Positions 9,663 to 55,068 of a DNA stretch of 64,000 nucleotides are shown here, in pieces. The notes below the pieces were generated by a model. It ran no database searches, was not told the DNA's origin, and saw only the letters and a list, made by a program, of their open reading frames with translations. A program made the translations under genes and the position numbers. Where the stretch lies: the NCBI GenBank assembly GCA_039585235.1, contig JBDGWG010000007.1:1-64000 (forward strand). Reading direction: 5' to 3'. Each line of letters begins with the position of its first letter. The first letter of the stretch is position 1. Origin of the DNA: Gemmatimonadota bacterium. Its GTDB lineage: Bacteria; Gemmatimonadota; Gemmatimonadetes; Palauibacterales; Palauibacteraceae.

Positions 9663-10054
9663 GAGCCTGAGTAGACGAGGGTGGTCAATTGCACGTGGCG
9701 CCGTCCCATTCGGCCAACCGAATATTCGACGTCGACCGTGATCTCGGCCGTCTTCAAACCCACGGTGCTGTGAGACACGTCTACCTTGCGTCTGTACGGT
9801 CCCGTACCCTCGACTCCGTTCTCGTCCACGGCCACCGCTGCCTGCGGCTCGATATCCTCTACGGGAAGTGCCTTCAGCTCCTCCATCTTCTGGACCGCGA
9901 GCGCCGTCGCCCGCCCCTGTTCGTTTGTGTGAACGCTTGCCAGGGTCACGGTCGTGAGACCGGAGAGCACGCCGGCCACGCCGACAGTGAGCACGATCAG
10001 CGCGATCAGAACCTCGATCAGGGTGAAGCCACGATCCGAGCGTTCCTTTTTCAC
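9659..10054 (-). CDS. pilV: type IV pilus minor pilin PilV-like
   Basis: GTG at 10054 (GGGAG immediately upstream) gives 'VKKERSDRGFTLIEVLIALIVLTVGVAGVL'. ~131 aa, a typical PilV size. Confidence 0.7.
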   Translation of the reverse strand: MKKERSDRGFTLIEVLIALIVLTVGVAGVLSGLTTVTLASVHTNEQGRATALAVQKMEELKALPVEDIEPQAAVAVDENGVEGTGPYRRKVDVSHSTVGLKTAEITVDVEYSVGRMGRRHVQLTTLVYSGS

Positions 10055-10701
10055 TCCCAACCTCCATCTCTCCACCGCCACACGCGGATCCCACCGGACC
10101 GGCTTACGCCGATCGCCCACACGAGATCGTTCCGATCCTCGTGCCGCACGTAGACGGCTCCCCACAGGGAATTCAGAGTGTCTGGCCAGGCGACGGTGCC
10201 CCGGCGCTCGAAGACGATCGGGTTCGTCGGCAGGTCGACGGCCCCCACGAGCGTGCCTCCGAAAGGAGTCGTACCGGCGGCTCCGGTTCCAAACTCCACA
10301 ACATCCGCGAACGCCTTTCCGCGCCAACTCAGCTCGCTGTCGGAGAACTCGATCCGGGTGGCCGCGATCTCCGGCGCAGTGCCGGTTGGCACGTCCCCCG
10401 GGTCGCCGAGGTTGGCGTAGGCCGTGTAGAAATCGTCGGCCCCCGCAGGTTCGACGTTGAAATAGACGGCGCGGTTCATCGCCACGGCCCGGAAGCGGGC
10501 CAATCTCATCGATTGCGCGAGTGTCTCGACCTCGTTTCGCACTCGGCGGGTCTCCGTGGCGCGGAGGAAGAATGGGGCGGTCGTCAGCCCGAGAACCGTT
10601 ACCAGGGACATTACGATCAACAACTCGATGAGCGTGAACCCGCCATACCGGCGTTTCCCTGCCCGATCCTGCCGCTTCGAGTATTCTTCAACAGTGTGCA
10701 T
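10051..10701 (-). CDS. fimT: GspH/FimT-family pseudopilin
   Basis: 'RRYGGFTLIELLIVMSLVTVLGLTTAPFF' is a prepilin motif. It is first gene of the operon, divergent from the ADOP permease. Confidence 0.75.
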   Translation of the reverse strand: MHTVEEYSKRQDRAGKRRYGGFTLIELLIVMSLVTVLGLTTAPFFLRATETRRVRNEVETLAQSMRLARFRAVAMNRAVYFNVEPAGADDFYTAYANLGDPGDVPTGTAPEIAATRIEFSDSELSWRGKAFADVVEFGTGAAGTTPFGGTLVGAVDLPTNPIVFERRGTVAWPDTLNSLWGAVYVRHEDRNDLVWAIGVSRSGGIRVWRWRDGGWE

Positions 10702-11015
10702 GTGGTCTTTCGAGTCTCGTACCCAGCGCTAGGGGGGTCCGCAATGTGTATGGCCTCACGCTGTCGCGGACCTGGCGACCGCCCATATGAGAGCAAGAAG
10801 CAAACCAGACGAGGAATCGACGGAAGTGTCAGTGAAATATGTTGTTACGCATCAGATATAGGTAGATAGTGACACCGGCTACCGGTTCCATTGCCGGGTT
10901 TCGTGCAATAATCCTGAGGATGAAGCGGCCCGCGGCGGCGTGAAACCCCGAACGTCACAGGTCGTATTATGTTACCGGGCAGCAAGTTGGCGCTCCTTCT
11001 GCGACGGATCTCGGC

Positions 11016-13409
11016 ATGGACAGAGTCTGGCAGGACTTCCGGTACAGCTTCCGGTCGCTGCGCCACGGCGGGCTCCTGATCGCGATCGCGATCCTGTCGC
11101 TCGGAATCGGGATCGGCTCGGTCACCACGATCTTCACCGCCGTGGACGTGTTCATGCTGCGGCCGCTGCCTTACCCGGACTCTCACGATCTCCAGTCCGT
11201 CTACACGACGAATCAAGAGCGCGGTTGGATGTGGGTCTCGTTCTCGGTACCCGATTTCGTGGACTTCCGCGAGCGGAGCGAGGCGATGGACGTGGCCGTA
11301 TCGCGCGGAGCGGCCTTCAACCTGTCCGAAGGGGATCGTCCCGAGCGGGCGCAGGGCAGACGCCTGAGCTGGAACTGGCTCCGCGTTCTGGGTGTCCAGC
11401 CGGCGCTGGGCCGCGGATTTACGCAAGAAGAAGAGATCGAGGGTCGGGACCAGGTCGCGCTCATCAGTCATGGCCTGTGGCAAAGGCGGTTCGGGGCGGA
11501 TCCCGACATCCTCGGCTCCGACATCCTGCTGGACGGGGAGCCTCACACGATCATCGGCGTCATGCCGGCCGACTTCTGGTACGGGTCCATCTTCGACGAC
11601 ATCTGGGTGCCGTTCTCTATCACGGGCGAGGAGTCCCGCAACAGTCACTACATCAGCGCGCTGGCCCGCGTGAACGACGGCTTCACACAAGCACAGGCCG
11701 CGGACGAGACGGAGCGCATCGCCGCCCAACTGGCCATCGATTACCCGGAGACGAACACCGGGAACGGGGCCAGGCTCGTGACCCTGCACGAGGACATCTT
11801 CAACGAGGGATTCAGGGTCGGCACGTCGATCTCGAGCCTGGCCGTGATGTTCCTGCTGCTCATCGCCTGCGCCAACGTGGCCAACCTGCTGCTCACGCAC
11901 GCGGTAGGGCGTGAGCGGGAGATGGCGGTCCGATCGGCGCTCGGCGCGGACCGCGGACGGATACTGCGGTACTTCCTGACGGAATCCCTCATCCTGTCGT
12001 TTGCCGGCGGTGTGGCCGGCCTGCTGATCTCCGTGTTCGGTATCCGCTGGCTGGTGTCGGTGATGCCCTCCTGGTTCCCGAGGGTAGACGAGATCGGGCT
12101 CGATGCCCGCGCTCTCTTGTTCACGATGGCGATCGTGTTCCTGAGCGCGATTCTCGTGGGCCTGGCACCGGCGATCCAGGGAGCGCGTGGCAGCACGGCA
12201 GCGTCGCTCAAGGAAGGCGGCCGGGGGGGGACCGCGGCGCGCGGAGGACGGCTCCGGAAAGGGCTGGTTATAGGCGAGGTCGCGCTCGCCCTGGCGCTGC
12301 TCGTGTCATCGGCGCTCCTCGTGCAGGCGTTCTACAACGTGCGCCTGGCCGACCGTGGGTTCGACGAGAGCGACCTGCTGGCCTTCCGGATCTCCCTCCC
12401 GGAGCAGGAGTACCCCGACGAGATTTCTATCGCGGCGTTCCACGAGGAGCTGACCCTGAGGCTCGAGTCCCTGCCTGGTGTGACAGGAGTCGGCGCGACC
12501 TCGATCCTGCCGTCCCAGGGGAACAACAGCACCTATTACACCCTGCCGGGAGACGACATCCAGACGGACCAGGACCGGAAAGTCACGAACCTGCTCGAGA
12601 TCACGCCCGGGTATTTCGAGGCGATGGACGTGCCGATCGTGCGGGGCAGGGGTCTCGAAGACCGGGACCGGGAGGGCGTTCGGGACGTGGTCGTGATCAA
12701 CGAAGTGCTCGCCGAGAGACACTGGCCCGACGAAGAGCCGATCGGACGCGAGATAGTGTTCGGCGAAACCACGAGTGCGGTCGTCGGAGTGGCCGCGAAC
12801 ACGGCGGTGGCCACTGCGACACCGGGTGAGCGTCCGATGGTCTACGTCCCGGTCTACCAGGTCGGGCGCAGGAACCTCGGCTACCTGGTGGAATCGGACT
12901 CTCCGCTCGAGTCGTTGTTCGAGTCCGTCCGCGCGGAAGTCCACGGCGTCGATTCCGACATCCCCGCCTACAGCGTCCGTCCCCTGAAGGACGTCATCGA
13001 CGAGTCCCTCGGCGGCGACACGATCATGGCCAAGATCATGAGCGTGGTGGCGGTGATCGCTCTCGTGCTCGCCCTGGCCGGCGTCTACGGGGTGATGGCC
13101 TACTCCGTGTCACAGCGTAGACAGGAACTGGGGATTCGCATGGCACTCGGGGCGCGAAATGGAGACGTAGTCGGGATGATCATGCGGCAGGGGACCATCC
13201 TCGCCGCAATCGGCATCGCGGTGGGCCTTGGCCTGGCGTTCGGCATGGCCAAGGGAGTCTCGTTCTTCCTGTTCGGGGTGAGCGCGTTCGAGCCCGTGAC
13301 CTACGGTGGGATGGCGGGGGCCCTCCTGATCGCGGGTATCGTGGCCACGTATTTCCCGGCGCGGCGAGCTACTCAGGTCGATCCGGTGGAAGCGCTGCGA
13401 GCCGAATAG
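11016..13409 (+). CDS. ADOP-family ABC transporter permease (duplicated FtsX/MacB-like, ~800 aa)
   Basis: N-terminal TM, large periplasmic domain and C-terminal 4-TM FtsX block, repeated twice. No adjacent ATPase (orphan permease). Confidence 0.85.
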   Translation: MDRVWQDFRYSFRSLRHGGLLIAIAILSLGIGIGSVTTIFTAVDVFMLRPLPYPDSHDLQSVYTTNQERGWMWVSFSVPDFVDFRERSEAMDVAVSRGAAFNLSEGDRPERAQGRRLSWNWLRVLGVQPALGRGFTQEEEIEGRDQVALISHGLWQRRFGADPDILGSDILLDGEPHTIIGVMPADFWYGSIFDDIWVPFSITGEESRNSHYISALARVNDGFTQAQAADETERIAAQLAIDYPETNTGNGARLVTLHEDIFNEGFRVGTSISSLAVMFLLLIACANVANLLLTHAVGREREMAVRSALGADRGRILRYFLTESLILSFAGGVAGLLISVFGIRWLVSVMPSWFPRVDEIGLDARALLFTMAIVFLSAILVGLAPAIQGARGSTAASLKEGGRGGTAARGGRLRKGLVIGEVALALALLVSSALLVQAFYNVRLADRGFDESDLLAFRISLPEQEYPDEISIAAFHEELTLRLESLPGVTGVGATSILPSQGNNSTYYTLPGDDIQTDQDRKVTNLLEITPGYFEAMDVPIVRGRGLEDRDREGVRDVVVINEVLAERHWPDEEPIGREIVFGETTSAVVGVAANTAVATATPGERPMVYVPVYQVGRRNLGYLVESDSPLESLFESVRAEVHGVDSDIPAYSVRPLKDVIDESLGGDTIMAKIMSVVAVIALVLALAGVYGVMAYSVSQRRQELGIRMALGARNGDVVGMIMRQGTILAAIGIAVGLGLAFGMAKGVSFFLFGVSAFEPVTYGGMAGALLIAGIVATYFPARRATQVDPVEALRAE

Positions 13410-13508
13410 ACCTGAGGTGAGGGCACCTTCATTGCCTCGCCCTTGACCATCGACCAGTTTTGAGCGTTCCTCGGGGCCGATACTCCCGGTAATGGAAGCG
13501 CTCACGGC

Positions 13509-15332
13509 ATGAAGAAGTTCGTCCAGGAGATTCACCGCCGCTCACTCTGGCAGGTGCTGGGTATCTATATCTTGGGTGCCTGGGGTGCTCTGCAGGTCGT
13601 GGACGTGCTGGCCCAGAACTTCGGACTTCCCGAGTGGTTCCCGGCCTTCGCGCTGGCTCTCCTGGTAATCGGTCTCCCGATTGTGCTGGCCACGGCGGTC
13701 GTGCAGGAAGGGGTTCGCGGGCCCGAGCCGGCCGGTGAAGCAGAGCCGGGTGGCGCCGAATCTCCGGCTCTCACGGCTCCGGTGAGCGAATCCTCCGGCA
13801 ACAATCTTTTCACATGGCGGAACGCGATCCTCGGTGGACTGGGAGCCTTCGCACTGTGGGGTGTCGTGGCCGCCGGATGGATGCTTTTCGGGCCCGGCAC
13901 GGGATCGGGGGCCGCTGCAACGGGGTCGACAGCCGACCGGGCCGAGGCCGGCCGAGACCTTCGTTCAGTCGCAGTGCTGCCGTTCGCCACCCGCCTCACG
14001 TCGGAGGAGGACGAGTACTTCGCTGAGGGGATGCACGACGACCTGCTGACCCAGCTCGCCAAGATCGACTCCCTCAAAGTGATCTCACGTACCTCGGTGA
14101 TGGAATACAAGGGGGTAAATCGGAACATCCGGGAGATCGCCGCCGAGCTCGAAGTGGCGACGGTGGTGGAGGGGGGTGTGCAGCGATCGGGAGATCGGGT
14201 GCGCGTGAACGTGCAGCTCATCGACGCGAGCACGGACCGGCACCTGTGGGCGGAGACGTACGACGAGGAGCTCACAGCGGCCAACGTATTCGCGATCCAG
14301 AGCGACCTGGCGAAGAAGATCGCGTCGGCTCTCCAGGCGACGCTGACGCCCGAGGTGGAAGAACGGATCGAGGAGCAGCCCACCGAGAGCCTCGAGGCAT
14401 ATGACCTGTACGTTCGCGGCAGGCTCATCCTGGATAATCGCGGAAGCACCAGGGACGGTGTGGAAACCGCAGCGGATCTGTATCGCCTGGCGATCTCCTC
14501 CGACCCGACCTACGCGCTCGCGCACGCCGGGCTGGCGAACGCGTATCTGCAGCTCTTCAACCTGGGTTACCTGTCCGAGGGGGAGGCGCTGCCACAGGCC
14601 AGCACGGCCCTGGAGCGGGCGCTCGCGTTGAACCCGGATCTTGCGGAAGGGCGTTCACTGCGCGCGCAGCTTCTGCGGCTCGAGCTGCGACCCGCGGAGG
14701 CGGAACGGGAGGTCCGGCGCGTCCTTGAGCTCAACCCTGGAAGCGCCCAGGCGCACGCGCAGTACAGCCGTGTGCTGCTCGATCTCGGACGGCCTGAGGA
14801 ATCGGTCCTCGAGGCTCGCCGCGCGGTGCAACTGGATCCTCTCTCGGTCGGCCTGCGCAGAGTCCTGGTGGCCCGGCTGGCCTGGGTGGGTGACTACGAC
14901 GGGACGATCGAAGAGTCACGTAACCTGCTCGAGCTCGAGCCCGCCGAGGCCGACGCGCACTACTACGCCGGTATGGCCCGAACCATCAAGGGCGAGACGG
15001 CGAGTGCGATCGAATCGTTCCGTCAGGCGATCGAACTGAACCCGGATGATCCGTACTATCCTGCCGGCCTCGCTTGGGCCTATGCGAAGGCGGGGGATCG
15101 GGAGCAATCGCTCGAATACCTCCGTCGGGCCGAGACGGCCGGGGTGCCGCTGAAAGAAGTCGGATTGGTATACGGGGCGCTCGGTGACCTGGACCGGGCG
15201 TTCGATTACCTCGAGCGCGGCCTTGAAACGGAGCCGGGAACGCTGGCCGGTATCAAAGCGGATCCCTCGGCCGAGCCCCTGCGCGCCGACCCGCGTTGGG
15301 ATGCGTTGATGGAGAAGATCGCCCGCGAGTAG
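13509..15332 (+). CDS. TPR-repeat protein with N-terminal TM and TolB-N-like module
   Basis: 'SVAVLPFATRLTSEEDEYFAEGMHDDLLTQLAKIDSLKVISRTS' is the TolB-N-like motif. The C-terminal half is TPR-like (AxxY, LNP patterns). Confidence 0.75.
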   Translation: MKKFVQEIHRRSLWQVLGIYILGAWGALQVVDVLAQNFGLPEWFPAFALALLVIGLPIVLATAVVQEGVRGPEPAGEAEPGGAESPALTAPVSESSGNNLFTWRNAILGGLGAFALWGVVAAGWMLFGPGTGSGAAATGSTADRAEAGRDLRSVAVLPFATRLTSEEDEYFAEGMHDDLLTQLAKIDSLKVISRTSVMEYKGVNRNIREIAAELEVATVVEGGVQRSGDRVRVNVQLIDASTDRHLWAETYDEELTAANVFAIQSDLAKKIASALQATLTPEVEERIEEQPTESLEAYDLYVRGRLILDNRGSTRDGVETAADLYRLAISSDPTYALAHAGLANAYLQLFNLGYLSEGEALPQASTALERALALNPDLAEGRSLRAQLLRLELRPAEAEREVRRVLELNPGSAQAHAQYSRVLLDLGRPEESVLEARRAVQLDPLSVGLRRVLVARLAWVGDYDGTIEESRNLLELEPAEADAHYYAGMARTIKGETASAIESFRQAIELNPDDPYYPAGLAWAYAKAGDREQSLEYLRRAETAGVPLKEVGLVYGALGDLDRAFDYLERGLETEPGTLAGIKADPSAEPLRADPRWDALMEKIARE

Positions 15333-15363
15333 TCGGCAGGCTGGGTCCGACGAGACCCCGCCG

Positions 15364-15564
15364 TCAGATCGCGCAGGTCATGTCCGTGCCGCAGCACATC
15401 GGCGACTTCACCATCCCGTGGCCGTTGGGGCACTTCGACACGTGAACCGTGCTTCCGTCGTCCTTCGTCAGCGTCTCGTGTACCAGCTCCGAGCCGCAGC
15501 TCCCGCACGTGATGATGCCGACGCTCATTCCGCAGGTGGGGCAGGTATACAGGGCCATCTTCAT
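15364..15564 (-). CDS. Cys-rich small protein (66 aa, 10 Cys; zinc-ribbon/metal-binding-like)
   Basis: 'CPTCG...CGSCG...KCPNGHG...MCCGTDMTC'. GGAAG lies 7 nt upstream of the ATG. Divergent from the B12-rSAM operon. Confidence 0.5.
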   Translation of the reverse strand: MKMALYTCPTCGMSVGIITCGSCGSELVHETLTKDDGSTVHVSKCPNGHGMVKSPMCCGTDMTCAI

Positions 15565-15722
15565 AGCTTCCGGTCTCGGGTTGTCGGTCGATACAACTGA
15601 ACTCGCTTCAGCCTAGTGTATTGGCCCGACTTGGGCCAGATTAGAGTCCCCTCCTCACCTCGTGTCCACGAGCGGCATCATTCGCCCGGGTGAAGGTCGC
15701 CGCAACGGGAACGGCGAGTTCC

Positions 15723-16106
15723 ATGACGATCAACCTGTACGCCGCATGGATCGGCTTCCTGCTTGGCGCTCTCGCCGGGGCGACCTCGGGCCTGTTCTTC
15801 GCCCGGGACGACTGGCTCGGCGGGTATGCCGACTGGCGGCGCCGTATGATCCGTCTCGGACACGTGTCCTTCTTCGGCATCGGTTTCCTCAACCTCGGCT
15901 TCTACCTCACGGTCCACGCGCTCGATATGCAGTCGTGGGCGGGCGTGCAGCTTCCTGCGGACCTGCTGCTCATCGGCGCGGTGACAATGCCCATCGTCTG
16001 CTACCTGTCGGCCTTCCGGAAGAGCCTGCGGCACCTGTTCTTTCTCCCGGCCGGGGCCGTCACACTGGCGCTCGCCGTGTTCCTGTTGAGGCTCGCATCG
16101 CCATGA
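15723..16106 (+). CDS. small polytopic membrane protein (hypothetical, 4 TM)
   Basis: ATG at 15723 (MTINLYAAWIGFLL...). The stop overlaps the start of the radical SAM gene (ATGA at 16103..16106). Confidence 0.6.
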   Translation: MTINLYAAWIGFLLGALAGATSGLFFARDDWLGGYADWRRRMIRLGHVSFFGIGFLNLGFYLTVHALDMQSWAGVQLPADLLLIGAVTMPIVCYLSAFRKSLRHLFFLPAGAVTLALAVFLLRLASP

Positions 16107-21679: not shown

Positions 21680-22025
21680 CGCGGGTCTCCTGGAACGGTG
21701 GTGATCGGGATAACGGTCCAGAGTAGAAACGACAGCGGGGTGGAAGCAAGCCGGTGTTATCGCCGATCCGCTTCCTACGGTCTCGGCAATCACGACCACG
21801 TTTCGGGTCGATCCGTCCCGTCCGGCCCTGGCGACGGCCGGAGGAATGTTCTTGTATCTGTATGGTAATATTTCAGTTGGCAGGGACACGCGGTCGCCGG
21901 CACCTCTGGAATGACCCTTGCTGCGTTGTCGCTGTTTGAAGCAGCGAACCGACCGAGTTGCCTGTTCCTCCATATGTGACGCGCAAGCGATGTCGAGCAC
22001 GACCTTTGATCAGAGGCTTCCAGTC

Positions 22026-24173
22026 ATGCGAAGATACTCAGCCACGATCCTGACTCTGTCGCTGGCGATTCTCGTCGCGGCCTGCGGCGAACGGACCACG
22101 GACTACGAAATGACCGACGACACGGACAACGTGCTTCTAGCCGAATGGACAGGTCCGTACGGAGGCGTGCCGGCGTTCGACGAGATGGATCTCGCGGACC
22201 TCAAGCCGGCCCTCGAGACGGGCATGGAGCTGGAGCTGGCGGAGATCGACGCGATCGCGAACAATCCTGAACCTCCGACGTTCGAGAACACGATCGTCGC
22301 GATGGAGGGGGTAGGCGAGGACCTCGACCGGGTGGGCACGTATCGGGGCATCTGGAGCTCCAACATGTCCTCACCGGAGTTCCGCGACATCCAGATGGAA
22401 ATGGCCCCCAGGCTGGCCGAGCACCGTACGAAGATCACTCAGAACGAGGCGCTGTTCGAGCGCATCCGCGAGGTCTACGAGAGCGACGAGGCCGAGAGCC
22501 TGCGCCCGGACGAGCAGCGGCTTCTATGGCTCGTGTACGACGGTTTCGCTCGGAACGGCGCGACGCTTGAGGGCGAGGCGAAAGAGCGCTATGCGGAGAT
22601 CAACCAGCGCCTTGCCGAGCTGCACACGCAGTTTGGCAACAACGTGCTGGCTGATGAAGAAGGCTACGTCACGTACGTGACGGAGGACCAGCTGGGTGGA
22701 CTGCCGGAGGCCTACATCCGGTCGGCGGCCGCAGCGGCGGCGGATCGCGCGCGCGAAGGCGAGCACGCGGTCACGAACACGCGCTCTTCCATGGCCCCGT
22801 TCCTCACGTTCTCCGACGAGCGTGATCTGCGGGAACAGGTCTGGCGGACGTACTACAGCCGCGGCGACAACGGCGACGAACACGACAACAACGCCCTGAT
22901 CGCCGAGATCCTCGAGCTCAGGAACGAGCGCGTTCAGCTCCTGGGATACGAGAACTACGCGGCGTGGCGGCTCGAGAACCGGATGGCAAAGGACCCGGCC
23001 GGTGCGTTCGGGTTGCTGGAGGCGATCTGGCCGGCGGCACTGGCCCGGGTCGAGGAAGAGGTCGCGGACATGCAGGCGATCGCAGATGCCGAGGGCGCCG
23101 GGATCACGATCGAGCCCTGGGACTACCGCTACTACGCCGAGAAGGTGCGCCAGGCGAAGTACGATCTCGACTCGGACGAAGTGAAGCAGTACCTGCAGCT
23201 CGCCAACCTGATCGACGCGATGCATTTCGTGGCAGACGAGCTGTTTCAGTTTGAGTTCACGCCGGTCCCCGGAGGTTCGGTCCCCGTATGGCAGGAGGAC
23301 GTAGAGGTCTGGGAGGTCACGAACCGGAACACGGGTGAGCATGTCGGCCTGTGGTACCTGGATCCGTTCGCCCGTCCGGGCAAGCGATCCGGCGCTTGGG
23401 CCACCACATACCGGAGCTACGAGACGTACGACGGGCTGAAGACGACGCTCGGCTCGAACAACTCCAACTTCATTCCGGGGGAACCGGGCGAGGCCGTCCT
23501 CATTTCGTGGGACGATGCCGAGACCCTGTTCCACGAGTTCGGGCACGCACTGCATTACCTGTCGTCGAACGTCGCTTACCCGACGCTCAACGGCGGAGTG
23601 CGCGACTATACGGAGCTCCAGTCACAGCTCATGGAGCGCTGGCTGCAGACGGACGAGGTGATCGACAACTACCTGGTACACGTCGAGACGGGCGAGCCGA
23701 TACCGGATGAGCTGGTGGCGAAGATCCGCAACGCGGCGACGTTCAACCAGGGATTCGAGACGACCGAGTTCCTGGCCTCGGCTCTCATGGACATGAAGTA
23801 CCACACGATGGACCCGGCGGACCTTGACGTGGACACGTTTGAACGCCAGGCGCTGGCCGAACTCGGGATGCCGAAAGAGATCCCGATGCGGCACCGCAGC
23901 ACGCATTTCGCTCACGCCTTCTCGGGCGAGGGCTACTCGGCCGGCTACTACAGCTACGAGTGGGCGGAAGTCCTGGTGGCCGATGCGGCGGAGGCCTTCG
24001 CGGAAGCGCCGGGCGGGTTCTATGACCCGGAGGTGGCGGCGATGATGGTCGAGCACCTGTACTCGGTCCGAAACGCCGTGGACCCGGCAGACGCTTACCA
24101 CGAGTTCCGAGGAAGGGACGCGACGGTGGACGCCCTGATGCGGGCGCGGGGATTCCCGGTGCCGGCGGAGTAG
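22026..24173 (+). CDS. dcp: M3-family zinc metallopeptidase (peptidyl-dipeptidase Dcp / oligopeptidase A-like), lipoprotein signal
   Basis: 'HEFGHALHYLSS' HExxH motif. The N-terminus 'MRRYSATILTLSLAILVAACG' is a lipobox. Confidence 0.85.
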   Translation: MRRYSATILTLSLAILVAACGERTTDYEMTDDTDNVLLAEWTGPYGGVPAFDEMDLADLKPALETGMELELAEIDAIANNPEPPTFENTIVAMEGVGEDLDRVGTYRGIWSSNMSSPEFRDIQMEMAPRLAEHRTKITQNEALFERIREVYESDEAESLRPDEQRLLWLVYDGFARNGATLEGEAKERYAEINQRLAELHTQFGNNVLADEEGYVTYVTEDQLGGLPEAYIRSAAAAAADRAREGEHAVTNTRSSMAPFLTFSDERDLREQVWRTYYSRGDNGDEHDNNALIAEILELRNERVQLLGYENYAAWRLENRMAKDPAGAFGLLEAIWPAALARVEEEVADMQAIADAEGAGITIEPWDYRYYAEKVRQAKYDLDSDEVKQYLQLANLIDAMHFVADELFQFEFTPVPGGSVPVWQEDVEVWEVTNRNTGEHVGLWYLDPFARPGKRSGAWATTYRSYETYDGLKTTLGSNNSNFIPGEPGEAVLISWDDAETLFHEFGHALHYLSSNVAYPTLNGGVRDYTELQSQLMERWLQTDEVIDNYLVHVETGEPIPDELVAKIRNAATFNQGFETTEFLASALMDMKYHTMDPADLDVDTFERQALAELGMPKEIPMRHRSTHFAHAFSGEGYSAGYYSYEWAEVLVADAAEAFAEAPGGFYDPEVAAMMVEHLYSVRNAVDPADAYHEFRGRDATVDALMRARGFPVPAE

Positions 24174-46283: not shown

Positions 46284-47702
46284 CTATGGAAAGATACCCA
46301 GCTCCTCGTAGCACAGGACGATCTTGTCGATCGAGTTGACGAACGCGGCGGTGCGCATGTCGAGGTCGTCTCCGTTCCTCTTCTGGACCTCCCGCACCTG
46401 GTGGAAGGCGTTGATCATCGTTTCCTCGAGTCCCGAGTTCACCAGGTCTTCCTCGTCGGCTCCGCTGGCGAACAGGGCCATGTCCTGGTCCGAGAAGTCC
46501 TTGCCGGTCGTCTTTTCGACCGCCGCGAGGAGCTGCCGGTGGGCCTTCTCGTCGAACCGCTTCTCCATACGCCCGAAGCGCACGTGGGACAGGTTCTTCA
46601 GCCACTCGAAATACGATACGGTCACACCGCCGGCGTTGAGGTACAGATCGGGAAGCACCAGGACGCCCTTCTCCGCGAGGATCTCGTCGGCGTCCGCAGT
46701 CGTCGGACCATTGGCCGCTTCGGCGACCATGCGCGCCTGGATGCGACCGGCGTTACCCGCCGTGATCTGGTTCTCCAGAGCCGCCGGGACGAGTATGTCG
46801 CACTCGAGCTCCAGCGCATCACTCGAGTTCGGGACATCCGTGGCTCCAGGGAATCCGAGGATCGAGCCCGTCTCGCCCCGGTGGGCGACCAACTGATCCA
46901 GGTCCAGGCCGGCCGGGTTCGAGATCGCCCCCTCGTACTCAGCCACGCCTACCAGCACAGCACCGTCCTGCCGCAGGAAGTTCGCCGCGTGGTACCCGAC
47001 GTTCCCCAGTCCCTGTACGACCACCCGCTTTCCTGACAGGCCCGTGGAAAGGCCCAGTGCTCGCATGTCCTCGTCGATGTCACATGCCTCCCGGATCCCG
47101 AAATAGACGCCACGGCCGGTCGCCTCGAGCCGGCCGCTGATGCCTCCCTGTGCCAGAGGCTTGCCCGTGACGCACGCCTCCCCGTTCAACTCGCCCCCAC
47201 CCATGAGCGACTTGTAAGTGTCAACGATCCAGGCCATCTCCGTCGGTCCTGTGCCGTAGTCGGGCGCGGGAACGTCCACCCCCGGTCCGATGAACATCTT
47301 CTTCACGAGCTCGAACGTATAGCGGCGGGTGATTCTCTCGAGCTCGCCCGAGGAGTACTTCCGACGGTCGATCTGGATGCCGCCTTTGGCGCCTCCGAAC
47401 GGAACGTCCACGATCGCGCACTTGAAGGTCATCAGAGCCGCCAGGGCCATCACCTCGTCTTCGTTGGCGATCATGCTGTACCGGATCCCGCCCTTGGTCG
47501 GGAGTTTGTGGTGGCTGTGCTCCGCCCTCCACGCCCGGATGACCTCGATCGCCCCGTCGTCTCGCTTCACGGGGAAGGTGAGGCGATAGACGCTGTTGCA
47601 TTCCTTGATCTGGGCGAGAAGCCGGGGATCGTGGCCCGAAATCGATCCGGCCCGTTCGAAGCTGCGGTTTACCTGGTCGAGGAAGCTGACGTTAGTGCTC
47701 AC
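46284..47702 (-). CDS. gdhA: NAD(P)-dependent glutamate dehydrogenase
   Basis: 'GGIRYS...[26 protein letters not shown]' is the Glu/Leu/Phe/Val dehydrogenase signature. Confidence 0.9.
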
Positions 47703-47856
47703 GGTGACGCCTCCGTGATAGTGCGACGCCCGATCTCGGCCGCGGGAGGTCCCGTCAACCTTCGCGGCGCGTGGACAACGGGTCCAATGTACTCAAACGG
47801 AAGCGTCGGGAGGGGAGGCGGAAGTTACGGCAGGCGCTGAGTGGACCACCGGGCGA

Positions 47857-50800
47857 TCAGGGAATCGGACAGCCCGTGACTTCGTAGGACAGCTCGATCC
47901 GTTGCTTGTCCCGGGTGAGATCCGTGTGGCGAGCGGCCCGCTCTTCGTCCAGATCGACTTCCATCCTGGAGACACCGGTTACCACATAAGCCACCCACCT
48001 CGAATCGACTGCCACGTAGGCTTCCTTGAGCTTGTCGCATCCGGCAATTCCCGACTCGAACTGCATCGCGAAATTCCGGAAGCTGACCATGGCGCCGTCA
48101 GCGGAGTCGGCCAAGGCGTCGAGCACTAAGATCCGGGGATCGATTCCGGCCGGAACGATCTCGGGATACTGTATTCCGGGGAATTCGGATTCGAAGTCCG
48201 GGGAAAGGACGACCGGCTGACTGCCCCTGGTCTCCACGGAATCGGCCCGCGCGGTTCCGTCGTCCACTCCGGCTACCGTCGGTTTGCCCGACGACCCGTC
48301 GGTCCGCACGCCCGGTAAGCTGGATTGCCAGTCGAAGTCGGGCGGCCGGAACATCCGGTTGGCGCCAAACGCCGCCACCGCCACGATCCCGATGCTCGCG
48401 GCCACGTTGCCTGCCTGGCGTGCAGCGCTCACCCATCGCTGACGTCTGCGTTTCCTCGCGGCCTCCATCTCGGTCTCTTGTTCCGCCCGGCGAGCCTCGG
48501 CTTCGCGCTCCAGCACCGCTGCATCTTCTTCTTCCGCCTTCTTCGCGTCGGCCTCCACCACCTCGCGACGTGCCCGGTTCACGGAGACCTGGCGGGCCGC
48601 TTCTTCCGCTTTTGCCCGCGCCGCGGCTTCTTCCGCGCGGCTGAGTTCGGCGTCCCTGCGGCGCTCCACTTCCTTGGCCGTGGTCTGGCGGATCGCCTCC
48701 AGTTCTGCGCCGCGGAGGGCGACGGTCTGCTCCAGGGCCTTGCGTTCCATGCGAAGGCGAGAGACCTCCTCGCGTGCGACTTCGGCTACTTTCCGGGCCT
48801 TGGTGGCCATGCGAGCCGCCTCTTCTTCGGCGGCCAGCCGCGCTGCTTTGAACTCGGCGACCTGCCCCGCGGCTTCAGACTCCGCTTTCCGCCGCCGGTC
48901 CGACTCCATTCGCGCCGAGCGCCAGGCGTCTTCGGCCTCGGCCGCCAGAACCGCCGAGCGCTCCTCGGCGGCCTCCCGGGCTTTCTCGAGGTCCGAGGCC
49001 TCTTGAGCGATGCGCTCCTCGGTTTCGCGAAGGGCTGCTTCGTCCTCTTCGGTCTCCAGAGCGGCCTGCTCCTGGATAGCCTCCTTTTCGGCTCGCTTCT
49101 CGGATGCCTGTCGCACGGCGTCCTCCGCGGCCTGCCGGGCGGCCTCGAGCTGCAGGGACTTCTGGGCGGATTCCTTCTCTGCGGCTTCTCTACGCTCCGC
49201 TTCCACACGTGCTGCCTCGACCGCTGAGGCGGCTTCTTCAGCCATTCGCTCGGCCTCGGCTACGGCAGCCTGTCTGGCCGCCTCCAGCTCGGCCGCCCGC
49301 CCTGCCGCTGAGATCTCCGCTTCCCTCCGGGCCGCCTCCTCATTCCGTCTCCGTGCAGCCTCTCGCTTGGCCGCTTTGAGGGCGGCCTCTGCCTCGGCCG
49401 TCTGGCGCGTGGCTTGTGCCTCCGCCGTCTGGCGGGTCTCGTCGAGCTCGGTAGTGATCCGTGCCGCCTCGTCCTCGGCCGCTCGCCGGGCCTCGGCTTC
49501 TGCCTCGCGACGATCGGCCTCCTCCTCTGCCTGCTTCCTGGCCGCATCGACCTCGACAGCGCGGCGCGCGGCTTCCTGTTCAGCTGCTTCGCGGGCCGAC
49601 TCGAGCTCGGCCGCCTTCTGCATGGCCTCTTCCTCCGCTTCCCTGCGAAGGGCCTCTTCCGACCGATGGCGCTCCGCTTCGGCTTCAGCGAGGATCTGCG
49701 CGGCCTCGGCGTCATCGGCGCGGCGCTCCAACTCCTCCGCCGCCTGCCGTGCCTCCTCGACCTCGGCGGCCCGGCGTTCAGCATCCCGCTCGGCCGCCTG
49801 CCGTGCCTCGACGACTGCCTGACGCATGGCTTCGAGCTCGACGGTCCGGAGCGCAGCCTCTTTCTCGGCTTCCTTTCGAGCTGTTTCCGCCTCGGAAGCC
49901 CATCGGGCTGCCTCCGCTTCGGCAGCTTTGCGGGCGGACTCCAGCGCGGTTACCCGCCGAACGGCCTCCGATATCGCCTCTTCGTGCGCCTCGGACTCGG
50001 CCTGTCGGCGGAGGGCCTCTCGTTCGGCGGCTTCACGAGCAGCCTCCGCTTCAGCCGCTCGCTTCGCGGCTTCCGTTTCCGCGGCTCTGATCGCATCCGC
50101 GGCCTCCGAGGCCTGACGTGCCGCCTCGTCTTCAGCCGTTCTTCGGGCGGCTTCGAGCTCGGCTGTGCGACGGGCCGCTTCTTCTTCCGCGGCCTGGCGA
50201 GCTGCTTCGGCCGCTTCGAGCGTGGCGTTCAGCTCTGCAGCCGTCCTCGCGGCTTCCGCTTCGGCCGCCTTGCGAGCCGCATTGAGCTCGGCGGTTCGCG
50301 TCGCAGCTTCTTCTTCCGCCGCCTTGCGAGCGGCTTCCGCCGCGTCAAGCGTGGCCTGTAGCTCGGCTGCCTGTCTTTCCGCCTCCTCCCGGGCCTTTCG
50401 GCGAGCCGCTTCCAGTTCGGCGGCACGCTGCACGGCCTCGGCCTCGGCGTCCTGCCGGTTGGCCTCGGCGGCTTCGAGAGTCGCCTTGAGCTCCGCAGCC
50501 TGTCGTTCGGCGCGTTCCTCGGTTTCCCGGCGAGCCGCCTCCAGTTCGGCGGTGCGGCGCGCTGCCTCCCCTTCCGCAGCCTGCCTGGCCGCCTTTGCCT
50601 CGGCGAGGGTGGTTGCAAGTTCGCGGGCGTGTCGCTCCGCTTCCAGCTCGGCCGCGGTTCGGGCGACCTCCAGCTCCGCGGCCCGGTGAGCAGCCTCCTG
50701 CTCGGCTTTCTGTCGAGTGTTCTCAGCCGCCTCGAGAGTCGATTCGAGTTCCGCTGCCTTCCGCTGCGCTTCCGCCTCGGCGAGCTGGCGGTCCCGTTGG

Positions 50801-52161
50801 GCCTCCTCGATCCTCCGGGTCGCCTCCTCCTCGGATGCGATCCGCGCCGCCTCCTCCGTCCGACGCCGCTCTGCTTCCAGCTCGGCCGCCTCCCTGGCCG
50901 CACGGGCCGCTTCCGCCTGTCGGGCGGCCTCCTCCTCCGCGGCCTGTCGAGCGGCTTCCTGTTCCGCGACGCGCCGGGCTGCGTCGGCTTCCGTAGCCCG
51001 GAGAGCCTCCTCGAGCTCTGCCGCACGCCGTTCGGCCCTGCTCGCCGCCGTTCGAAGTTGCTCGAGGCCCAAAGCCAGCCGGTCGGCCTCCTTCTCGGCC
51101 TGCTTTGCGGCGGCCTCGGCCTCAAGCGCCGCGTCCTCGGCCCGGCGCCTCTCGGCTTCCGCCTGTTCGTCCTCTTCCTGCTCGAGCTCGGCGGTACGCT
51201 GGGCGGCTTGCTCCGCCGCGACCCGGGCCGATTCCAGTTCGGCTGCTTTGCGTGCCGCTTCCTTCACCGCCTTCTTCGCCGCCTTCTCCGCCTTCTGACG
51301 CTGCTCTCCGAGCTCGACGGCCGTCCTGGTCGCGGCCGCCACGATGGATCGTCGCGCGACTTCCTCGGCTAGCGGACCATAGAATCCGGGCGAGCTGCCA
51401 AACGGTCCGGGCGCCGCTTCGAGCCGCGACCCGCGGGCGTCCTCCGTCAATTCGAGCGCTGTCGACGTCTCGCGAACGACCGCCGCCTCCGTGCGCACGT
51501 TCGCCCAGTCGAGCACCGTCCGTCGTTCGCCGCTGCCAAGGGCCCGTGTGGCGACAACCTCGTAGAACGGCAATTGGAGAGAGGCCGACAAACCCTCGGA
51601 TGTCTGGCGGAAGAAACCCCCACGAGCATCCTCGGCGTCGCCGCCTACGACGATTGTGCTCTGCCACGGTTCACCGAAGTACTTCCGATGCGTATTGAGC
51701 ACGGCCCCCGACAGGGCTACGGGCTCGTCGGCGTGACGGAGATACCATCCGACGAGATTCCCCCGAAGCTTCGTGGCGCCTTGGCGGAGCTCGTCCCAGG
51801 CCTCCAGGGGAATCAGATCCTGAAGGTCATCGACGAGGGGGAGGGGGGAGGGGCACACCCCAGAGATGAGCACGTATCGCCGACCGGAATCGAGGTCCTC
51901 GCACAGGTCTCCAGCGAGCAGCCCGAACGCCTGTTCTTCGCCCTCACCCTCGCGAGCATGACCCAGGAGCTGCCTGAGAGCGCCCTGGGTGATGAAGATG
52001 TCGTACAGCGGTTCCGCGCAAGAGGCGGTCGTGCCCTCAGTGGGCTCCCAGGCGATGCTCCTCGGGAGGGGCTGCGGTACCGAGATGTGGACACGCTCCG
52101 CGCCGCCGCCGTTTCCGGCGGCATCCACCGTGAGGGTTCGTGTCTCGTTCTCGGTCGCCAT
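47857..52161 (-). CDS. giant membrane-anchored coiled-coil protein with degenerate MPN/JAMM-like N-terminal domain
   Basis: 1434 aa. The N-terminal ~230 aa contain 'NLVGWYLRHADEPVALSGAVLNTH', which parallels the JAMM 'VGWYHSHP...LSG.D..TQ' layout but loses the first His. The ~850-aa Ala/Glu/Arg/Lys-rich repeats are of the form AAELEAARR..AEEEAARQ. A TM segment 'NVAASIGIVAVAAFGA' is followed by a ~210-aa non-repetitive C-terminal domain. Confidence 0.7.
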   Translation of the reverse strand: MATENETRTLTVDAAGNGGGAERVHISVPQPLPRSIAWEPTEGTTASCAEPLYDIFITQGALRQLLGHAREGEGEEQAFGLLAGDLCEDLDSGRRYVLISGVCPSPLPLVDDLQDLIPLEAWDELRQGATKLRGNLVGWYLRHADEPVALSGAVLNTHRKYFGEPWQSTIVVGGDAEDARGGFFRQTSEGLSASLQLPFYEVVATRALGSGERRTVLDWANVRTEAAVVRETSTALELTEDARGSRLEAAPGPFGSSPGFYGPLAEEVARRSIVAAATRTAVELGEQRQKAEKAAKKAVKEAARKAAELESARVAAEQAAQRTAELEQEEDEQAEAERRRAEDAALEAEAAAKQAEKEADRLALGLEQLRTAASRAERRAAELEEALRATEADAARRVAEQEAARQAAEEEAARQAEAARAAREAAELEAERRRTEEAARIASEEEATRRIEEAQRDRQLAEAEAQRKAAELESTLEAAENTRQKAEQEAAHRAAELEVARTAAELEAERHARELATTLAEAKAARQAAEGEAARRTAELEAARRETEERAERQAAELKATLEAAEANRQDAEAEAVQRAAELEAARRKAREEAERQAAELQATLDAAEAARKAAEEEAATRTAELNAARKAAEAEAARTAAELNATLEAAEAARQAAEEEAARRTAELEAARRTAEDEAARQASEAADAIRAAETEAAKRAAEAEAAREAAEREALRRQAESEAHEEAISEAVRRVTALESARKAAEAEAARWASEAETARKEAEKEAALRTVELEAMRQAVVEARQAAERDAERRAAEVEEARQAAEELERRADDAEAAQILAEAEAERHRSEEALRREAEEEAMQKAAELESAREAAEQEAARRAVEVDAARKQAEEEADRREAEAEARRAAEDEAARITTELDETRQTAEAQATRQTAEAEAALKAAKREAARRRNEEAARREAEISAAGRAAELEAARQAAVAEAERMAEEAASAVEAARVEAERREAAEKESAQKSLQLEAARQAAEDAVRQASEKRAEKEAIQEQAALETEEDEAALRETEERIAQEASDLEKAREAAEERSAVLAAEAEDAWRSARMESDRRRKAESEAAGQVAEFKAARLAAEEEAARMATKARKVAEVAREEVSRLRMERKALEQTVALRGAELEAIRQTTAKEVERRRDAELSRAEEAAARAKAEEAARQVSVNRARREVVEADAKKAEEEDAAVLEREAEARRAEQETEMEAARKRRRQRWVSAARQAGNVAASIGIVAVAAFGANRMFRPPDFDWQSSLPGVRTDGSSGKPTVAGVDDGTARADSVETRGSQPVVLSPDFESEFPGIQYPEIVPAGIDPRILVLDALADSADGAMVSFRNFAMQFESGIAGCDKLKEAYVAVDSRWVAYVVTGVSRMEVDLDEERAARHTDLTRDKQRIELSYEVTGCPIP
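48600..51300 (-). repeat. in-frame degenerate tandem coding repeats (coiled-coil array) generating antisense pseudo-ORFs
   Basis: Recurrent units such as gcggcttccgcctcggc / cgagctcggcggcacg are visible across this range. The plus-strand ORFs here are Ser/Ala/Arg homopolymer-like. Confidence 0.7.
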
Positions 52162-52414
52162 CTCAGGAATACCGCACTCCTATCGTCCCTCTCCATGGCA
52201 CGGCGCCTGCCGAAATGCCGCACTCGTCCGTGGACGGAAACAGCAAGTGCCGTTCCATCCTGAGCGTCATGTTCGGGCAACGCTCTAGGTGCATAAGTCC
52301 GGCACGAACGCAGGATCCAACCGGGAGGCTCTGACGGGCCAGGTGTGAAATAGCGTGTGAATCAGGCGAAATCTGGCGAATAGCGGAAGCCCTGGAACCG
52401 TCCGCCGGCGCAGC

Positions 52415-52711
52415 TCACGCTGCGTTTCGACGGGCTTCCTCCGAGATCAGAACGTCTACCAGCTCTGCGATCGCCTCGGCCGGCCGATCGAGACCGGGCT
52501 CCTCCCGATGGAGCTCCTCGATGCGCTCGAAGATGATTTGAGCGACGGTGAGCTCGAGGTATGGGATGGACCGGGCCTGAGCCGCGAAGTCCTCGTAGTC
52601 GTCGTCGCGAGCGGCCTCGAGGAGGTGCAGCACGCAACGAGGCAGAGAGCCCTGGCCCTTTTCGAGAGCTCCGGTCCAGTAGGTCGTCCAGTCGTAGAAC
52701 GCGACCTGCAT
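52415..52711 (-). CDS. small acidic cytoplasmic protein (hypothetical), immediately upstream of the giant gene
   Basis: ATG at 52711 (MQVAFYDWTTYWTGALEKGQ...). 98 aa, same strand as the giant gene and 5' to it. Confidence 0.4.
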   Translation of the reverse strand: MQVAFYDWTTYWTGALEKGQGSLPRCVLHLLEAARDDDYEDFAAQARSIPYLELTVAQIIFERIEELHREEPGLDRPAEAIAELVDVLISEEARRNAA

Positions 52712-52983
52712 GCCACCCTCCTCGCTGAGTGTCGCCCACTCTCTGCGCTGAGTATTCGCAAGACCCGCTCCGGTCGGCGACACAACTGCGCGTGCCCACA
52801 GTCACGCGGGTTTCGTGCCCTTCGCGGGCGCGCGCAAGTATGTGGGCCCGATCAGCGACCGCCGCAATCCGGCCGTGGTTCTTGCAATTCCCCCGGGTCG
52901 GCCCGCCGGCCGGAGCACCTTCGCAAGCGGGGGCGTCAACCCGTCGATTGCCGGCCCTTCGCTGCCGGGCTACCGTCTGTCGC

Positions 52984-55068
52984 ATGCCCAACCGTCTGAT
53001 TCACGAGAAAAGCCCCTACCTACTCCAGCACGCGCACAATCCCGTGGACTGGTATCCGTGGGGAGAGGAAGCGTTTGCCGCGGCGCGCGAGCTGGACCGG
53101 CCGATCTTCCTCTCGATCGGGTATGCCACGTGTCACTGGTGTCACGTGATGGAGCACGAGTCGTTCGAGGATCCGGAGGTGGCTCGCCTGCTGAACGAGG
53201 CGTTCGTCAACATCAAGGTCGACCGGGAAGAACGCCCCGACATCGACGGGATCTACATGACGGTCGCGCAGCTCACGACCGGGCACGGCGGCTGGCCCCT
53301 GACGATCCTCATGACGGCCGGTCGGATCCCGTTTCTCGCCGCCACGTACATTCCGCGAGAGGACCGCCACGGTCGGGTGGGGATGGTCAACCTGGTTCCG
53401 CGGATCCGCCACGCGTGGGAGGAAGACCGATCGGCCCTCCTCGATTCAGCCACCTTGATACAGCAGCGCCTCGAGAGTATGGCAGCCGCCGACCTCGGGG
53501 GACGCTCCCTCGGGATGGACGTGCTGCGGCAGGGGTTCAGCGAACTGGCCGCGTCCTTCGACCGGGAGCACGCGGGCTTCGGATCGGCGCCGAAGTTCCC
53601 CACTCCGCACCGTCTGTTGTTCCTCCTGCGCTACTGGGAGCGAACCGACGTGGCGCAGGCGCGTGACATGGTCGAGCAAACCCTCGACTCTCTCCGCGCC
53701 GGTGGGGTGTTCGACCAGGTCGGTTTCGGCTTCCACCGCTATTCGACGGATCGCGAGTGGCTTCTCCCCCACTTCGAGAAGATGCTCTACGACCAGGCGA
53801 TGCTGATGCTGGCGTACACGGAATCCTTCGAGGCGGAACCGACGCCAGGCAGGGAGTCCGTCATCCGGGAGATCGCCGAGTACGTGCTGCGTGACCTCAC
53901 CTCGTCGGAGGGGGCCTTCTATTCGGCCGAAGACGCGGATAGCGAGGGCGAAGAAGGCAGGTTCTATGTATGGGCGCTCGACGAGGTGCAATCGGTCCTG
54001 GACGAGAACGAGGCTCGCGTTGCTATCGACGCATGGAGTCTGGAACAGGGAGGGAACTACCGGGACGAAGCGACCGGCGAAGCCACGGGCCTGAATATTC
54101 CCCACCTGCGGCTTACGGCCGGGACGATCGCGACCGATCCGGAGATCGTGCCAGGTCAGGAAGCGGACCTCCTCGAGTCGGCACGCGCCAGGCTGTTCAC
54201 TCGCCGCGAGGGGCGCGTTCGACCCCTGCTCGACGACAAGGTCCTCACCGATTGGAACGGCCTCATGATCGCCGGGCTGGCGCGGGCGGGACGGGCGCTC
54301 GACGACCCGTCGCTCGTGGACGCGGCCCGCCGGGCAGCGGCGTTCGTGCATCGGGAGATGCGGAGCGAGGACGAGCTGCTGCACCGGTATCGGGACGGGG
54401 AGGCGGCAATCCCGGCCAACCTCGACGACTACGCGTTCCTGGCGTGGGGGGAGACCGAGCTTCATCAGGCCACCCTGGAGGCGGAGCACCTGCGTCGCGC
54501 GCTTGACCTCACCGACGCGATGGTCAGGCGTTTCCATGACGCGGAGCGCGGCGGCTTCTTCTTCAGTCCGGAGGGGAAGGCGGACCTGATCGTCCGCCGG
54601 AAGGAAGTGTACGACGGCGCGGTTCCGTCCGGAAACTCGGTCGCCCTGTTCAATCTCCTGCGGCTGGCTCGACTCACCGGTCGGACGGACTACGAGGAGC
54701 TGGCGGCGGAGACTTCGGCGGCGTTCTCGCGCCAGGTCGCCTCGCAGCCTTCCGCGTTCACGTTCTTCCTGTCGGCACTCGACATGGCCATCGGTCCTTC
54801 GCAGGAGCTCGTGATCGTCGGAGATCCGAACGCCGGGGACACTCGCGCGCTCGTGGCGGTGGCGCGTGAGGGATATCGTTCGAACCGGGTCGTGCTGCTG
54901 CGGCCGCCGGGGACGGCAGGCGCCACGATCACCGACCTGGCTCCGTTCACGAGAGAATTCGGTCTGCTGGACGGCCGCGCCGCCGCCTACCTGTGCACCG
55001 GGTTCGCGTGTGAGCGGCCCGTGTCAGAACCGGACGCCCTGCGTGACCTGATCCGAAACGCCTTCTGA
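52984..55068 (+). CDS. yyaL: thioredoxin-domain protein YyaL (DUF255 + six-hairpin glycosidase-like)
   Basis: '[23 protein letters not shown]...[21 protein letters not shown]' is the DUF255/thioredoxin-like N-terminus. Confidence 0.85.

Follow-up and report, generated by a model that had tools for sequence, protein, structure and literature searches.

A giant membrane-anchored protein of Gemmatimonadota with a degenerate MPN head on a probable ~140-nm coiled-coil stalk

Locus and gene call

The window analyzed here is a 64-kb stretch of contig JBDGWG010000007.1 (assembly GCA_039585235.1) from a Gemmatimonadota bacterium; all coordinates are positions within this window, and (-) denotes the minus strand. 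According to the open reading frame (ORF) list and its translation, a gene at 47857..52161 (-) with an ATG start codes for a giant protein of 1434 amino acids (aa), followed by a stop codon. From its N- to its C-terminus, the giant consists of a head with a degenerate MPN/JAMM domain, a long Ala/Glu/Arg-rich stalk, a single transmembrane (TM) helix and a small helical domain, an architecture suggestive of a membrane-rooted tether or scaffold. Its start (MATE...) is kept among the aligned orthologs. The G+C content of the window ranges between 62 and 70 %, with a strong strand skew at 48000-52000.

Scanning a single genome of each species for orthologs yielded 26 loci. Three of them are labelled uncultured bacterium and one (L027) Akkermansiaceae, the latter being taken to be mis-binned; all others belong to Gemmatimonadota metagenome-assembled genomes (MAGs). 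The 19 complete orthologs stem from independent Gemmatimonadota assemblies, measure 1220-1549 aa and contain the parts in the same order, with stalks composed of 29-35 % Ala, 20-25 % Glu, 11-19 % Arg and at most 1 % Pro, and with the TM helix at an equal relative position, ~140-172 residues from the C-terminal end. A syntenic copy is located on the 310-kb contig of L001, with which the window protein aligns collinearly in tblastn across its whole length (72 % identity for residues 409-1434). In L001, the giant (10001..14358) was called as two genes in different frames, a frameshift being the sole split; the GDH gene (14613..16032) was likewise called as two genes, and the small gene upstream (9450..9698) carries a 1-nt insertion relative to the window and ends early. 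These split or shortened genes are read as indel errors of the L001 assembly without biological meaning.

The initial annotation had warned that nucleotide repeats render the locus prone to assembly collapse or expansion. An ORF that is an assembly chimera, or a repeat number that is an assembly artefact, could indeed be suspected from the repetitive composition, from the many database homologs ending at contig ends, and from the one 18-aa unit by which two near-identical strains differ. On the DNA level, however, Tandem Repeats Finder (TRF) reported only a period of 129 nt with 2.1 copies and 75 % match, exact direct repeats inside the gene reach 17 nt at most, and the highest internal similarity amounts to 69 % across 350 nt. 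Because these repeats are weak, collapse is unlikely, and since the orthologs are collinear and of similar length, the warning is not supported. With 19 complete orthologs and a 310-kb contig running through the entire gene, the chimera reading is hardly credible and essentially refuted already. The giant is a genuine and conserved Gemmatimonadota gene, neither a chance ORF nor an assembly artefact. As to the two strain variants (L030 10550..15088 and L031 10550..15034), they are identical save for a single indel of 18 residues (2 x 9) within the repeats, which is therefore regarded as a real copy-number polymorphism at the level of the repeat unit.

The N-terminal MPN head

Scans of the full-length giant against Pfam and NCBIfam retrieved no match. 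With residues 1-270 alone, Pfam JAB (PF01398) was matched at E=0.0065 and 16.7 bits, i.e. under the gathering cut-off of 22.5 bits, and Rpn11/PSMD14 was matched in the PDB at E=0.015. The head displays the MPN alpha/beta fold, the core of which corresponds to residues ~50-205 (51547..52014, (-)). Short relatives of the giant pass the Pfam cut-off (P0081, P0124 and P0111 score 27.8-30.1 bits with the JAB profile), and the JAMM homology of the giant head is therefore transitive. Judged by fold and transitive homology, the giant can be placed within the JAMM superfamily, minus the catalytic motif. Both the domain matches and the fold bear out the MPN-like N-terminus proposed earlier.

The degenerate JAMM motif NLVGWYLRHADEPVALSGAVLNTH comprises residues 135-158 (51688..51759, (-)). 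In the alignment with PSMD14, the catalytic E/H/H/S/D correspond to Q/L/H/S/V in the window protein: HSH reads LRH, Ser is retained, Val stands in place of Asp, and Gln75 occupies the position of the catalytic Glu. The initial annotation had noted the missing first His; this holds for all 20 giants including the window protein (L, V or F instead), and Asp and Glu turned out to be replaced as well. Asp is substituted by E, A, V or Q in 19 of the 20, with L012 alone retaining it, and the Glu position varies among Q, R, H, T and S. Hence, the window protein does not have the JAMM catalytic motif (E...HxH...S..D, with His, His and Asp as zinc ligands) and combines the MPN fold with a degenerate metal site, as MPN- proteins do. 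Since the zinc and catalytic site is destroyed, the head is predicted to be an MPN- pseudoenzyme.

A head that is still an active metalloprotease and employs alternative ligands would be in line with the second His, which is retained in the window protein and in ~60 % of the giants, with the Glu found at the Asp position in most giants, and with the frequent retention of Ser. Such activity appears very improbable in view of the first His being lost from every giant, the variable Glu position and the Asp-to-Val exchange in the window protein. Furthermore, paralogs from the same phylum, at least one of them in the same MAG as a giant, keep the complete motif, and the relaxed constraint is therefore specific to the giants.

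Membrane anchor and C-terminal domain

The single TM helix (residues 1249-1271; 48349..48417, (-)) is marked by a Kyte-Doolittle maximum (19 residues) of 1.59 as compared to at most 0.85 elsewhere in the protein. It is preceded by KRRRQR, and the charge bias predicts the N-terminal side to be cytoplasmic (N-in). Structure prediction covered the terminal domains of the giant; in the AlphaFold2 (AF2) model, the last ~55 residues of the stalk form one helix that runs into the TM segment.

The part following the TM helix measures 163 aa instead of the 210 aa assumed at first. It is made up of a poorly conserved, presumably periplasmic spacer of ~68 aa (residues 1272-1339; 48145..48348, (-)), with an AF2 pLDDT <50 and a column identity of 0.43 versus 0.73-0.79 in other parts, and of a folded three-helix bundle of ~95 aa (residues 1340-1434; 47860..48144, (-)) which holds the invariant Cys1375 and Cys1431 and ends in ...TGCPIP. 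The giant thereby conforms to a family pattern of a single TM helix and a ~95-aa two-Cys C-terminal domain ending in ...GCP(R/I/V)P. The N-in charge bias and the two invariant Cys residues fit a periplasmic C-terminal domain; the initial annotation had supposed a single TM helix and a C-terminal domain outside the cytoplasm. An N-in, C-out topology is accordingly predicted, in which Cys1375 and Cys1431 would form a periplasmic disulfide.

The stalk

Between head and membrane extends a stalk of ~975 aa (residues 271-1245; 48427..51351, (-)), predicted to be alpha-helical without interruption. Residues 271-1215 comprise 32 % Ala, 23 % Glu and 14 % Arg (Pro 0, Gly 6), and the net charge of the stretch analyzed is -68. 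Autocorrelation peaks at lags of 9, 18, 43 and 86; self-identity at lag 43 reaches 0.67, and rows of 43 residues align when printed in register, paralleling the 129-nt DNA period. The clearest block (residues 456-713; 50023..50796, (-)) contains about six 43-residue repeats, each built as 9+9+7+9+9. Of the earlier description as an ~850-aa heptad-like coiled-coil array, the long uninterrupted helix stands and the coiled coil is supported by periodic conservation (see below), while the length and the heptads have to be replaced by ~975 aa and repeats of 9, 18 and 43 residues. Searches of Pfam and the PDB with a 258-aa stalk segment gave no match.

Composition by itself did not discriminate between a single alpha-helix and a coiled coil. 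A monomeric single alpha-helix stabilized by salt bridges (ER/K-type or (EAAAR)n-like), acting as spring or spacer, would account for the predominance of Ala and charged residues, and for the enrichment of opposite charges three to five residues apart (z 3-8; strong at i+3 and i+4) along with the depletion of like charges. Further points count against a coiled coil: Leu, Ile, Val and Met together make up only ~10 % of the stalk, and the Ala pattern is dominated by a period of 4.4 residues, which distributes Ala all round the helix, the signal at 3.53-3.58 being weaker; a coiled-coil core would therefore have to be unusually rich in Ala.

Evidence to separate the two comes from conservation. 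Per-column conservation in an alignment of eight clade-A orthologs, compared with shuffled controls, has a sharp period of 3.55 residues with a power of 7.9 x variance, whereas shuffles yielded 1.35 +/- 0.25 and at most 2.02 (observed z ~26). The conserved sector of the helix (mean 0.94) consists of 48 % Ala, 14 % Leu, 16 % Arg and as little as 7 % Glu, and the opposite sector (0.63-0.65) is variable with Lys, Gln, Asp and Ser; of the flanks next to the core, one is acidic and the other more basic. Such a pattern is the mark of a coiled coil, in which an apolar seam recurs every ~3.5-3.6 residues and is under stronger conservation than the face opposite to it. The i/i+4 enrichment of opposite charges that typifies ER/K helices is present as well, yet it coexists with this conserved apolar face, and an isotropic, solvent-exposed helix should have no single constrained apolar face. 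The 3.55-residue conservation period on an Ala/Leu face therefore favours a coiled coil over a single alpha-helix, leaving the latter a rather unlikely alternative. The stalk is probably a coiled coil with a conserved core, e/g-type flanks and a free outer face, which upholds the coiled-coil part of the initial annotation. The charge asymmetry of the flanks weakly suggests a parallel arrangement, and oligomeric state and strand orientation can be assigned from it only tentatively. With 0.148 nm for each residue, the length of the stalk would come to ~140 nm.

Two other explanations of the stalk were rejected. Nitrogen-storage or low-complexity filler disagrees with 79 % conservation and a phase-locked pattern, and a TolA-like periplasmic stalk with the opposite topology and the absence of a signal peptide.

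Promoter element and upstream gene

A sigma-54-type -24/-12 promoter-like element, TGGAACGGCACTTGCT, is located at 52242..52257 (-), 96 nt upstream of the giant ATG. The consensus for sigma-54 is TGGCAC-N5-TTGCW. In 26 of 27 orthologous loci, an element of the form TGGAACG-N4-TTGC[T/C/G] precedes the giant by 87-179 nt, in all synteny clades and irrespective of which gene adjoins upstream, and thus represents a -24/-12-like element at a conserved position. Only five loose matches to TGGAACG-N4-TTGC exist on both strands of the whole window, and the element is absent upstream of seven short paralogs. Further upstream, a repeat block of TTCGCC-N4-TTCGCC / TTCACAC-N6-TTCACAC (52341..52383, (-)) is shared by the window and L001 amid otherwise diverged intergenic DNA, and related TTCGC repeats precede the promoter element in other clades; these conserved repeats are as expected of an enhancer-binding-protein site and constitute a candidate for one. 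Since the element belongs to the giant whatever the upstream gene, the giant most likely forms its own sigma-54-dependent transcription unit. Scanning for sigma-70 promoters and terminators yielded nothing informative, and an Rfam scan of 47500..53000 only chance-level matches.

The small acidic ORF of 98 aa (52415..52711, (-)) ends up, as initially described, on the same strand and upstream of the giant, 253 nt from its ATG. The window and L001 copies share 74 of 75 residues although their DNA differs at many synonymous sites; the small gene is therefore real and under very strong purifying selection. Across clade-A loci, the protein is 87-98 % identical and far more conserved than either neighbour. 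No match was found in Pfam, the PDB or PADLOC, and the protein has no C-terminal Gly-Gly. It is confined to Gemmatimonadota metagenome sequences.

This gene had been introduced as the partner of the giant. The two genes could form an obligate system in which the small protein is a ligand, a chaperone or a regulator of the MPN head; its adjacency on the same strand at a gap of ~250 nt in all clade-A loci as well as in L030-L034, and its strong conservation, would be consistent with this. The gap, however, contains the giant's own conserved promoter-like element. Three synteny patterns were observed: DUF255-thioredoxin, small gene, giant and GDH in the clade of the window; a fatty-acid/ACP cluster followed by the giant; and a divergent ~140-aa ORF, unrelated to the small gene, followed by the giant. 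The small gene is not adjacent to the giant in other clades, and a homolog in L015 lies 6 kb away. Lack of a Gly-Gly end and of any family match also speaks against the two-gene system, which is considered doubtful. Because adjacency is limited to one clade, the partnership and indeed any link to the giant are unproven, and the status as partner was not upheld.

On the far side of the small gene, a DUF255/thioredoxin-like ORF (52729..55068, (+)) has its Pfam match starting at residue 88, and the L001 ortholog measures 693 aa; the ORF was probably called ~86 codons too long. With the shortened ORF, the divergent intergenic region to the small gene spans ~275 nt rather than 17 nt. Elsewhere in the window, a second sigma-54-like match, TGGAATGACCCTTGCT (21907..21922, (+)), is situated directly upstream of a Peptidase_M3 (oligopeptidase) ORF (21918..24173), the annotated TTG start of which is probably too early.

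A family of membrane-tethered JAMM proteins

A profile of the head, run exhaustively in HMMER with hits representing clusters at 50 % identity, retrieved 2658 representatives at E <=1e-3 and 179 at E <=1e-30. A typical relative possesses an MPN head, a variable linker, a TM helix and a tail of ~100-200 aa ending in ...F(D/E)xSGCPRP. Alignments revealed that an MPN domain at the N-terminus, including the motifs RSIxWxP and GGFFR, is common to the giant and its relatives (e.g. P0057, P0063, P0081, P0124), which also share the order MPN-linker-TM-bundle and the two conserved Cys, the relatives ending in ...SGCPRP. In a hidden Markov model (HMM) of the tail, built from 86 short members, the C-terminus of the window protein scored 72.9 bits with both Cys conserved. 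Short members exceed the Pfam JAB cut-off (e.g. 30.1 bits) and mostly retain the metal ligands, EHHSD, GHHSD and GHHAD being the commonest patterns.

Tabulation separated the giants cleanly from the relatives included in it. In the latter, linkers measure 0-524 aa with proline present in nearly all cases (4-46 %), and HxH..D is mostly intact; the seven short paralogs mentioned above have no sigma-54-type element. The giants, by contrast, have linkers of 819-1140 aa with proline absent or at most 1 %, and a dead site. An intact paralog (P0057) is encoded in the same MAG as the giant of L016, and at least one relative with a different tail belongs to the Acidobacteriota. The complete fusion of MPN domain and stalk is found in 19 Gemmatimonadota orthologs, and the small gene adjoins it in one clade. 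Neither Pfam nor NCBIfam nor PADLOC holds a family that spans the whole architecture, and no description of an MPN-stalk-TM-C-terminal-domain protein was found in the literature searched. Nor did a described function come up for the family as a whole. The earlier statement that no described family is known hence stands as far as databases are concerned, while the giant, with 2658 profile relatives, is no orphan. On this evidence, it is assigned to a large family of JAMM proteins tethered to the membrane, so far undescribed, and within it to a branch marked by a rod and a dead catalytic site. Ancestral members seem to have carried a JAMM head on a flexible leash, which the giants swapped for a rigid rod while losing catalysis.

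With respect to genomic context, no MPN+ paralog was found in the window. Neighbourhoods of the short relatives contain no genes for ubiquitin-like proteins (Ubl), E1 or E2 and no consistent partner, with the exception of Peptidase_S58; likewise, no Ubl, E1 or E2 gene was present in any neighbourhood examined. A Peptidase_S58 (DmpA-type) gene is located downstream of Gemmatimonadota MPN+ paralogs with intact HxH..D in L035 (3323..5203), L036 (3060..5828) and L038 (5001..7469), and in two of these loci (L035, L036/L037) a ZnuABC-like zinc transporter is encoded upstream. The MAG that contains L035 also contains the giant locus L016. A 98-aa ORF near the MPN+ paralog of L036 is unrelated to the small protein described above. 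Three minimal relatives, P0010, P0011 and P0013 (L003 3301..4224), comprise 307-396 aa and appear to have only an MPN-like head, a basic stretch and a C-terminal hydrophobic segment; they look tail-anchored, and their second His is gone (WYHSAP).

Comparison with known proteins

JAMM/MPN+ metalloproteases include Rpn11/PSMD14, CSN5, AMSH, archaeal JAMM1, bacterial Cap3 and BilC (PF01398, PF14464). Unlike these, the window protein is devoid of the first His, the Asp and the Glu, is anchored in the membrane, carries a 975-residue stalk and has no Ubl, E1 or E2 gene in the neighbourhoods examined. Closer in their degenerate state are eukaryotic MPN- scaffold subunits: Abraxas/ABRO1 consists of an MPN- domain followed by a coiled coil and is paired with the MPN+ protein BRCC36, and Rpn8 and CSN6 are further examples. 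The giant differs in being bacterial and membrane-bitopic, and its stalk is far longer than their helical extension.

Regarding the anchored rod, PodJ comprises cytoplasmic coiled coils, one TM helix and a periplasmic domain, a topology resembling the one predicted for the giant (N-in coiled-coil region, TM helix, periplasmic C-terminal domain). Scy/FilP have long non-heptad periods with a 51-residue repeat, of which the 43-residue repeat of the giant (12 turns) is reminiscent. These proteins have no MPN head, the stalk searches in Pfam and the PDB revealed no sequence similarity to them, and the giant is not known to form filaments or to localize to a pole. Golgins, i.e. eukaryotic tail-anchored long coiled-coil tethers, offer an analogy in their long coiled coil, C-proximal TM anchor and distal, N-terminal binding module; they share no sequence relationship with the giant and differ in cell biology, and the giant possesses a folded domain past the membrane. 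By analogy, the giant may act as an MPN- scaffold would if it were joined to an anchored coiled coil of the PodJ or golgin type.

Proposed function

The giant may well be a bitopic tether or scaffold of the inner membrane, with a dead MPN head on a ~140-nm coiled-coil stalk, a reading that is held with middling confidence. The stalk would form a parallel homodimer of ~140 nm, the dead head would serve as a binding rather than a cleaving module held far from the membrane, and the protein as a whole would present this head ~140 nm into the cytoplasm. The periplasmic bundle could fix the protein to the envelope or report on its state, and expression of the giant would depend on an RpoN-type activator. 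Candidate targets of the head are the MPN+ paralog (by analogy with Rpn11-Rpn8 and BRCC36-Abraxas), the small 98-aa protein and whatever substrate the protease once had.

Some results weigh against this proposal. Structure comparison of the three-helix bundle revealed no specific structural relative, and the gene neighbourhoods of the giants vary by clade and yield no functional hint. In a scan limited to neighbour genes, neither a bacterial enhancer-binding protein (bEBP) nor rpoN was found. A more specific version is put forward only tentatively, as an improbable elaboration: a sigma-54-controlled, trans-envelope molecular stalk made of a ~140-nm parallel coiled coil and rooted in the envelope by a disulfide-locked periplasmic bundle, the head of which captures a specific cytoplasmic partner. 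This partner could be the intact membrane-tethered MPN+ paralog or the ultra-conserved 98-aa protein. A role as a defence system was rejected, as neither the head nor the C-terminus nor the small protein matched any PADLOC model at E <=1 and the context is that of chromosomal housekeeping genes.

Conclusions

MPN scaffolds without catalytic activity are characteristic of eukaryotic complexes such as the proteasome lid, the COP9 signalosome, BRISC and eIF3; to our knowledge, no bacterial dead MPN scaffold with a structural role has been described. What is new here is a large undescribed family (2658 clusters) in which a JAMM domain is anchored to the inner membrane and linked to a small domain across it. 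Within this family, the giant branch represents a natural comparison, showing what may become of a tethered JAMM head after the loss of catalysis, when a flexible tether is exchanged for a rigid rod of ~140 nm. A membrane-rooted stalk reaching across an estimated one fifth of the cell diameter is a candidate organizer of cytoplasmic space in a poorly studied phylum, and the conserved sigma-54-type element provides a direct experimental handle. If the more specific version is true, the giant would amount to a golgin- or ruler-like tether of prokaryotes with a pseudo-deubiquitinase as its basis, and a hitherto unrecognized family of membrane-tethered JAMM proteases would have been revealed along with it.

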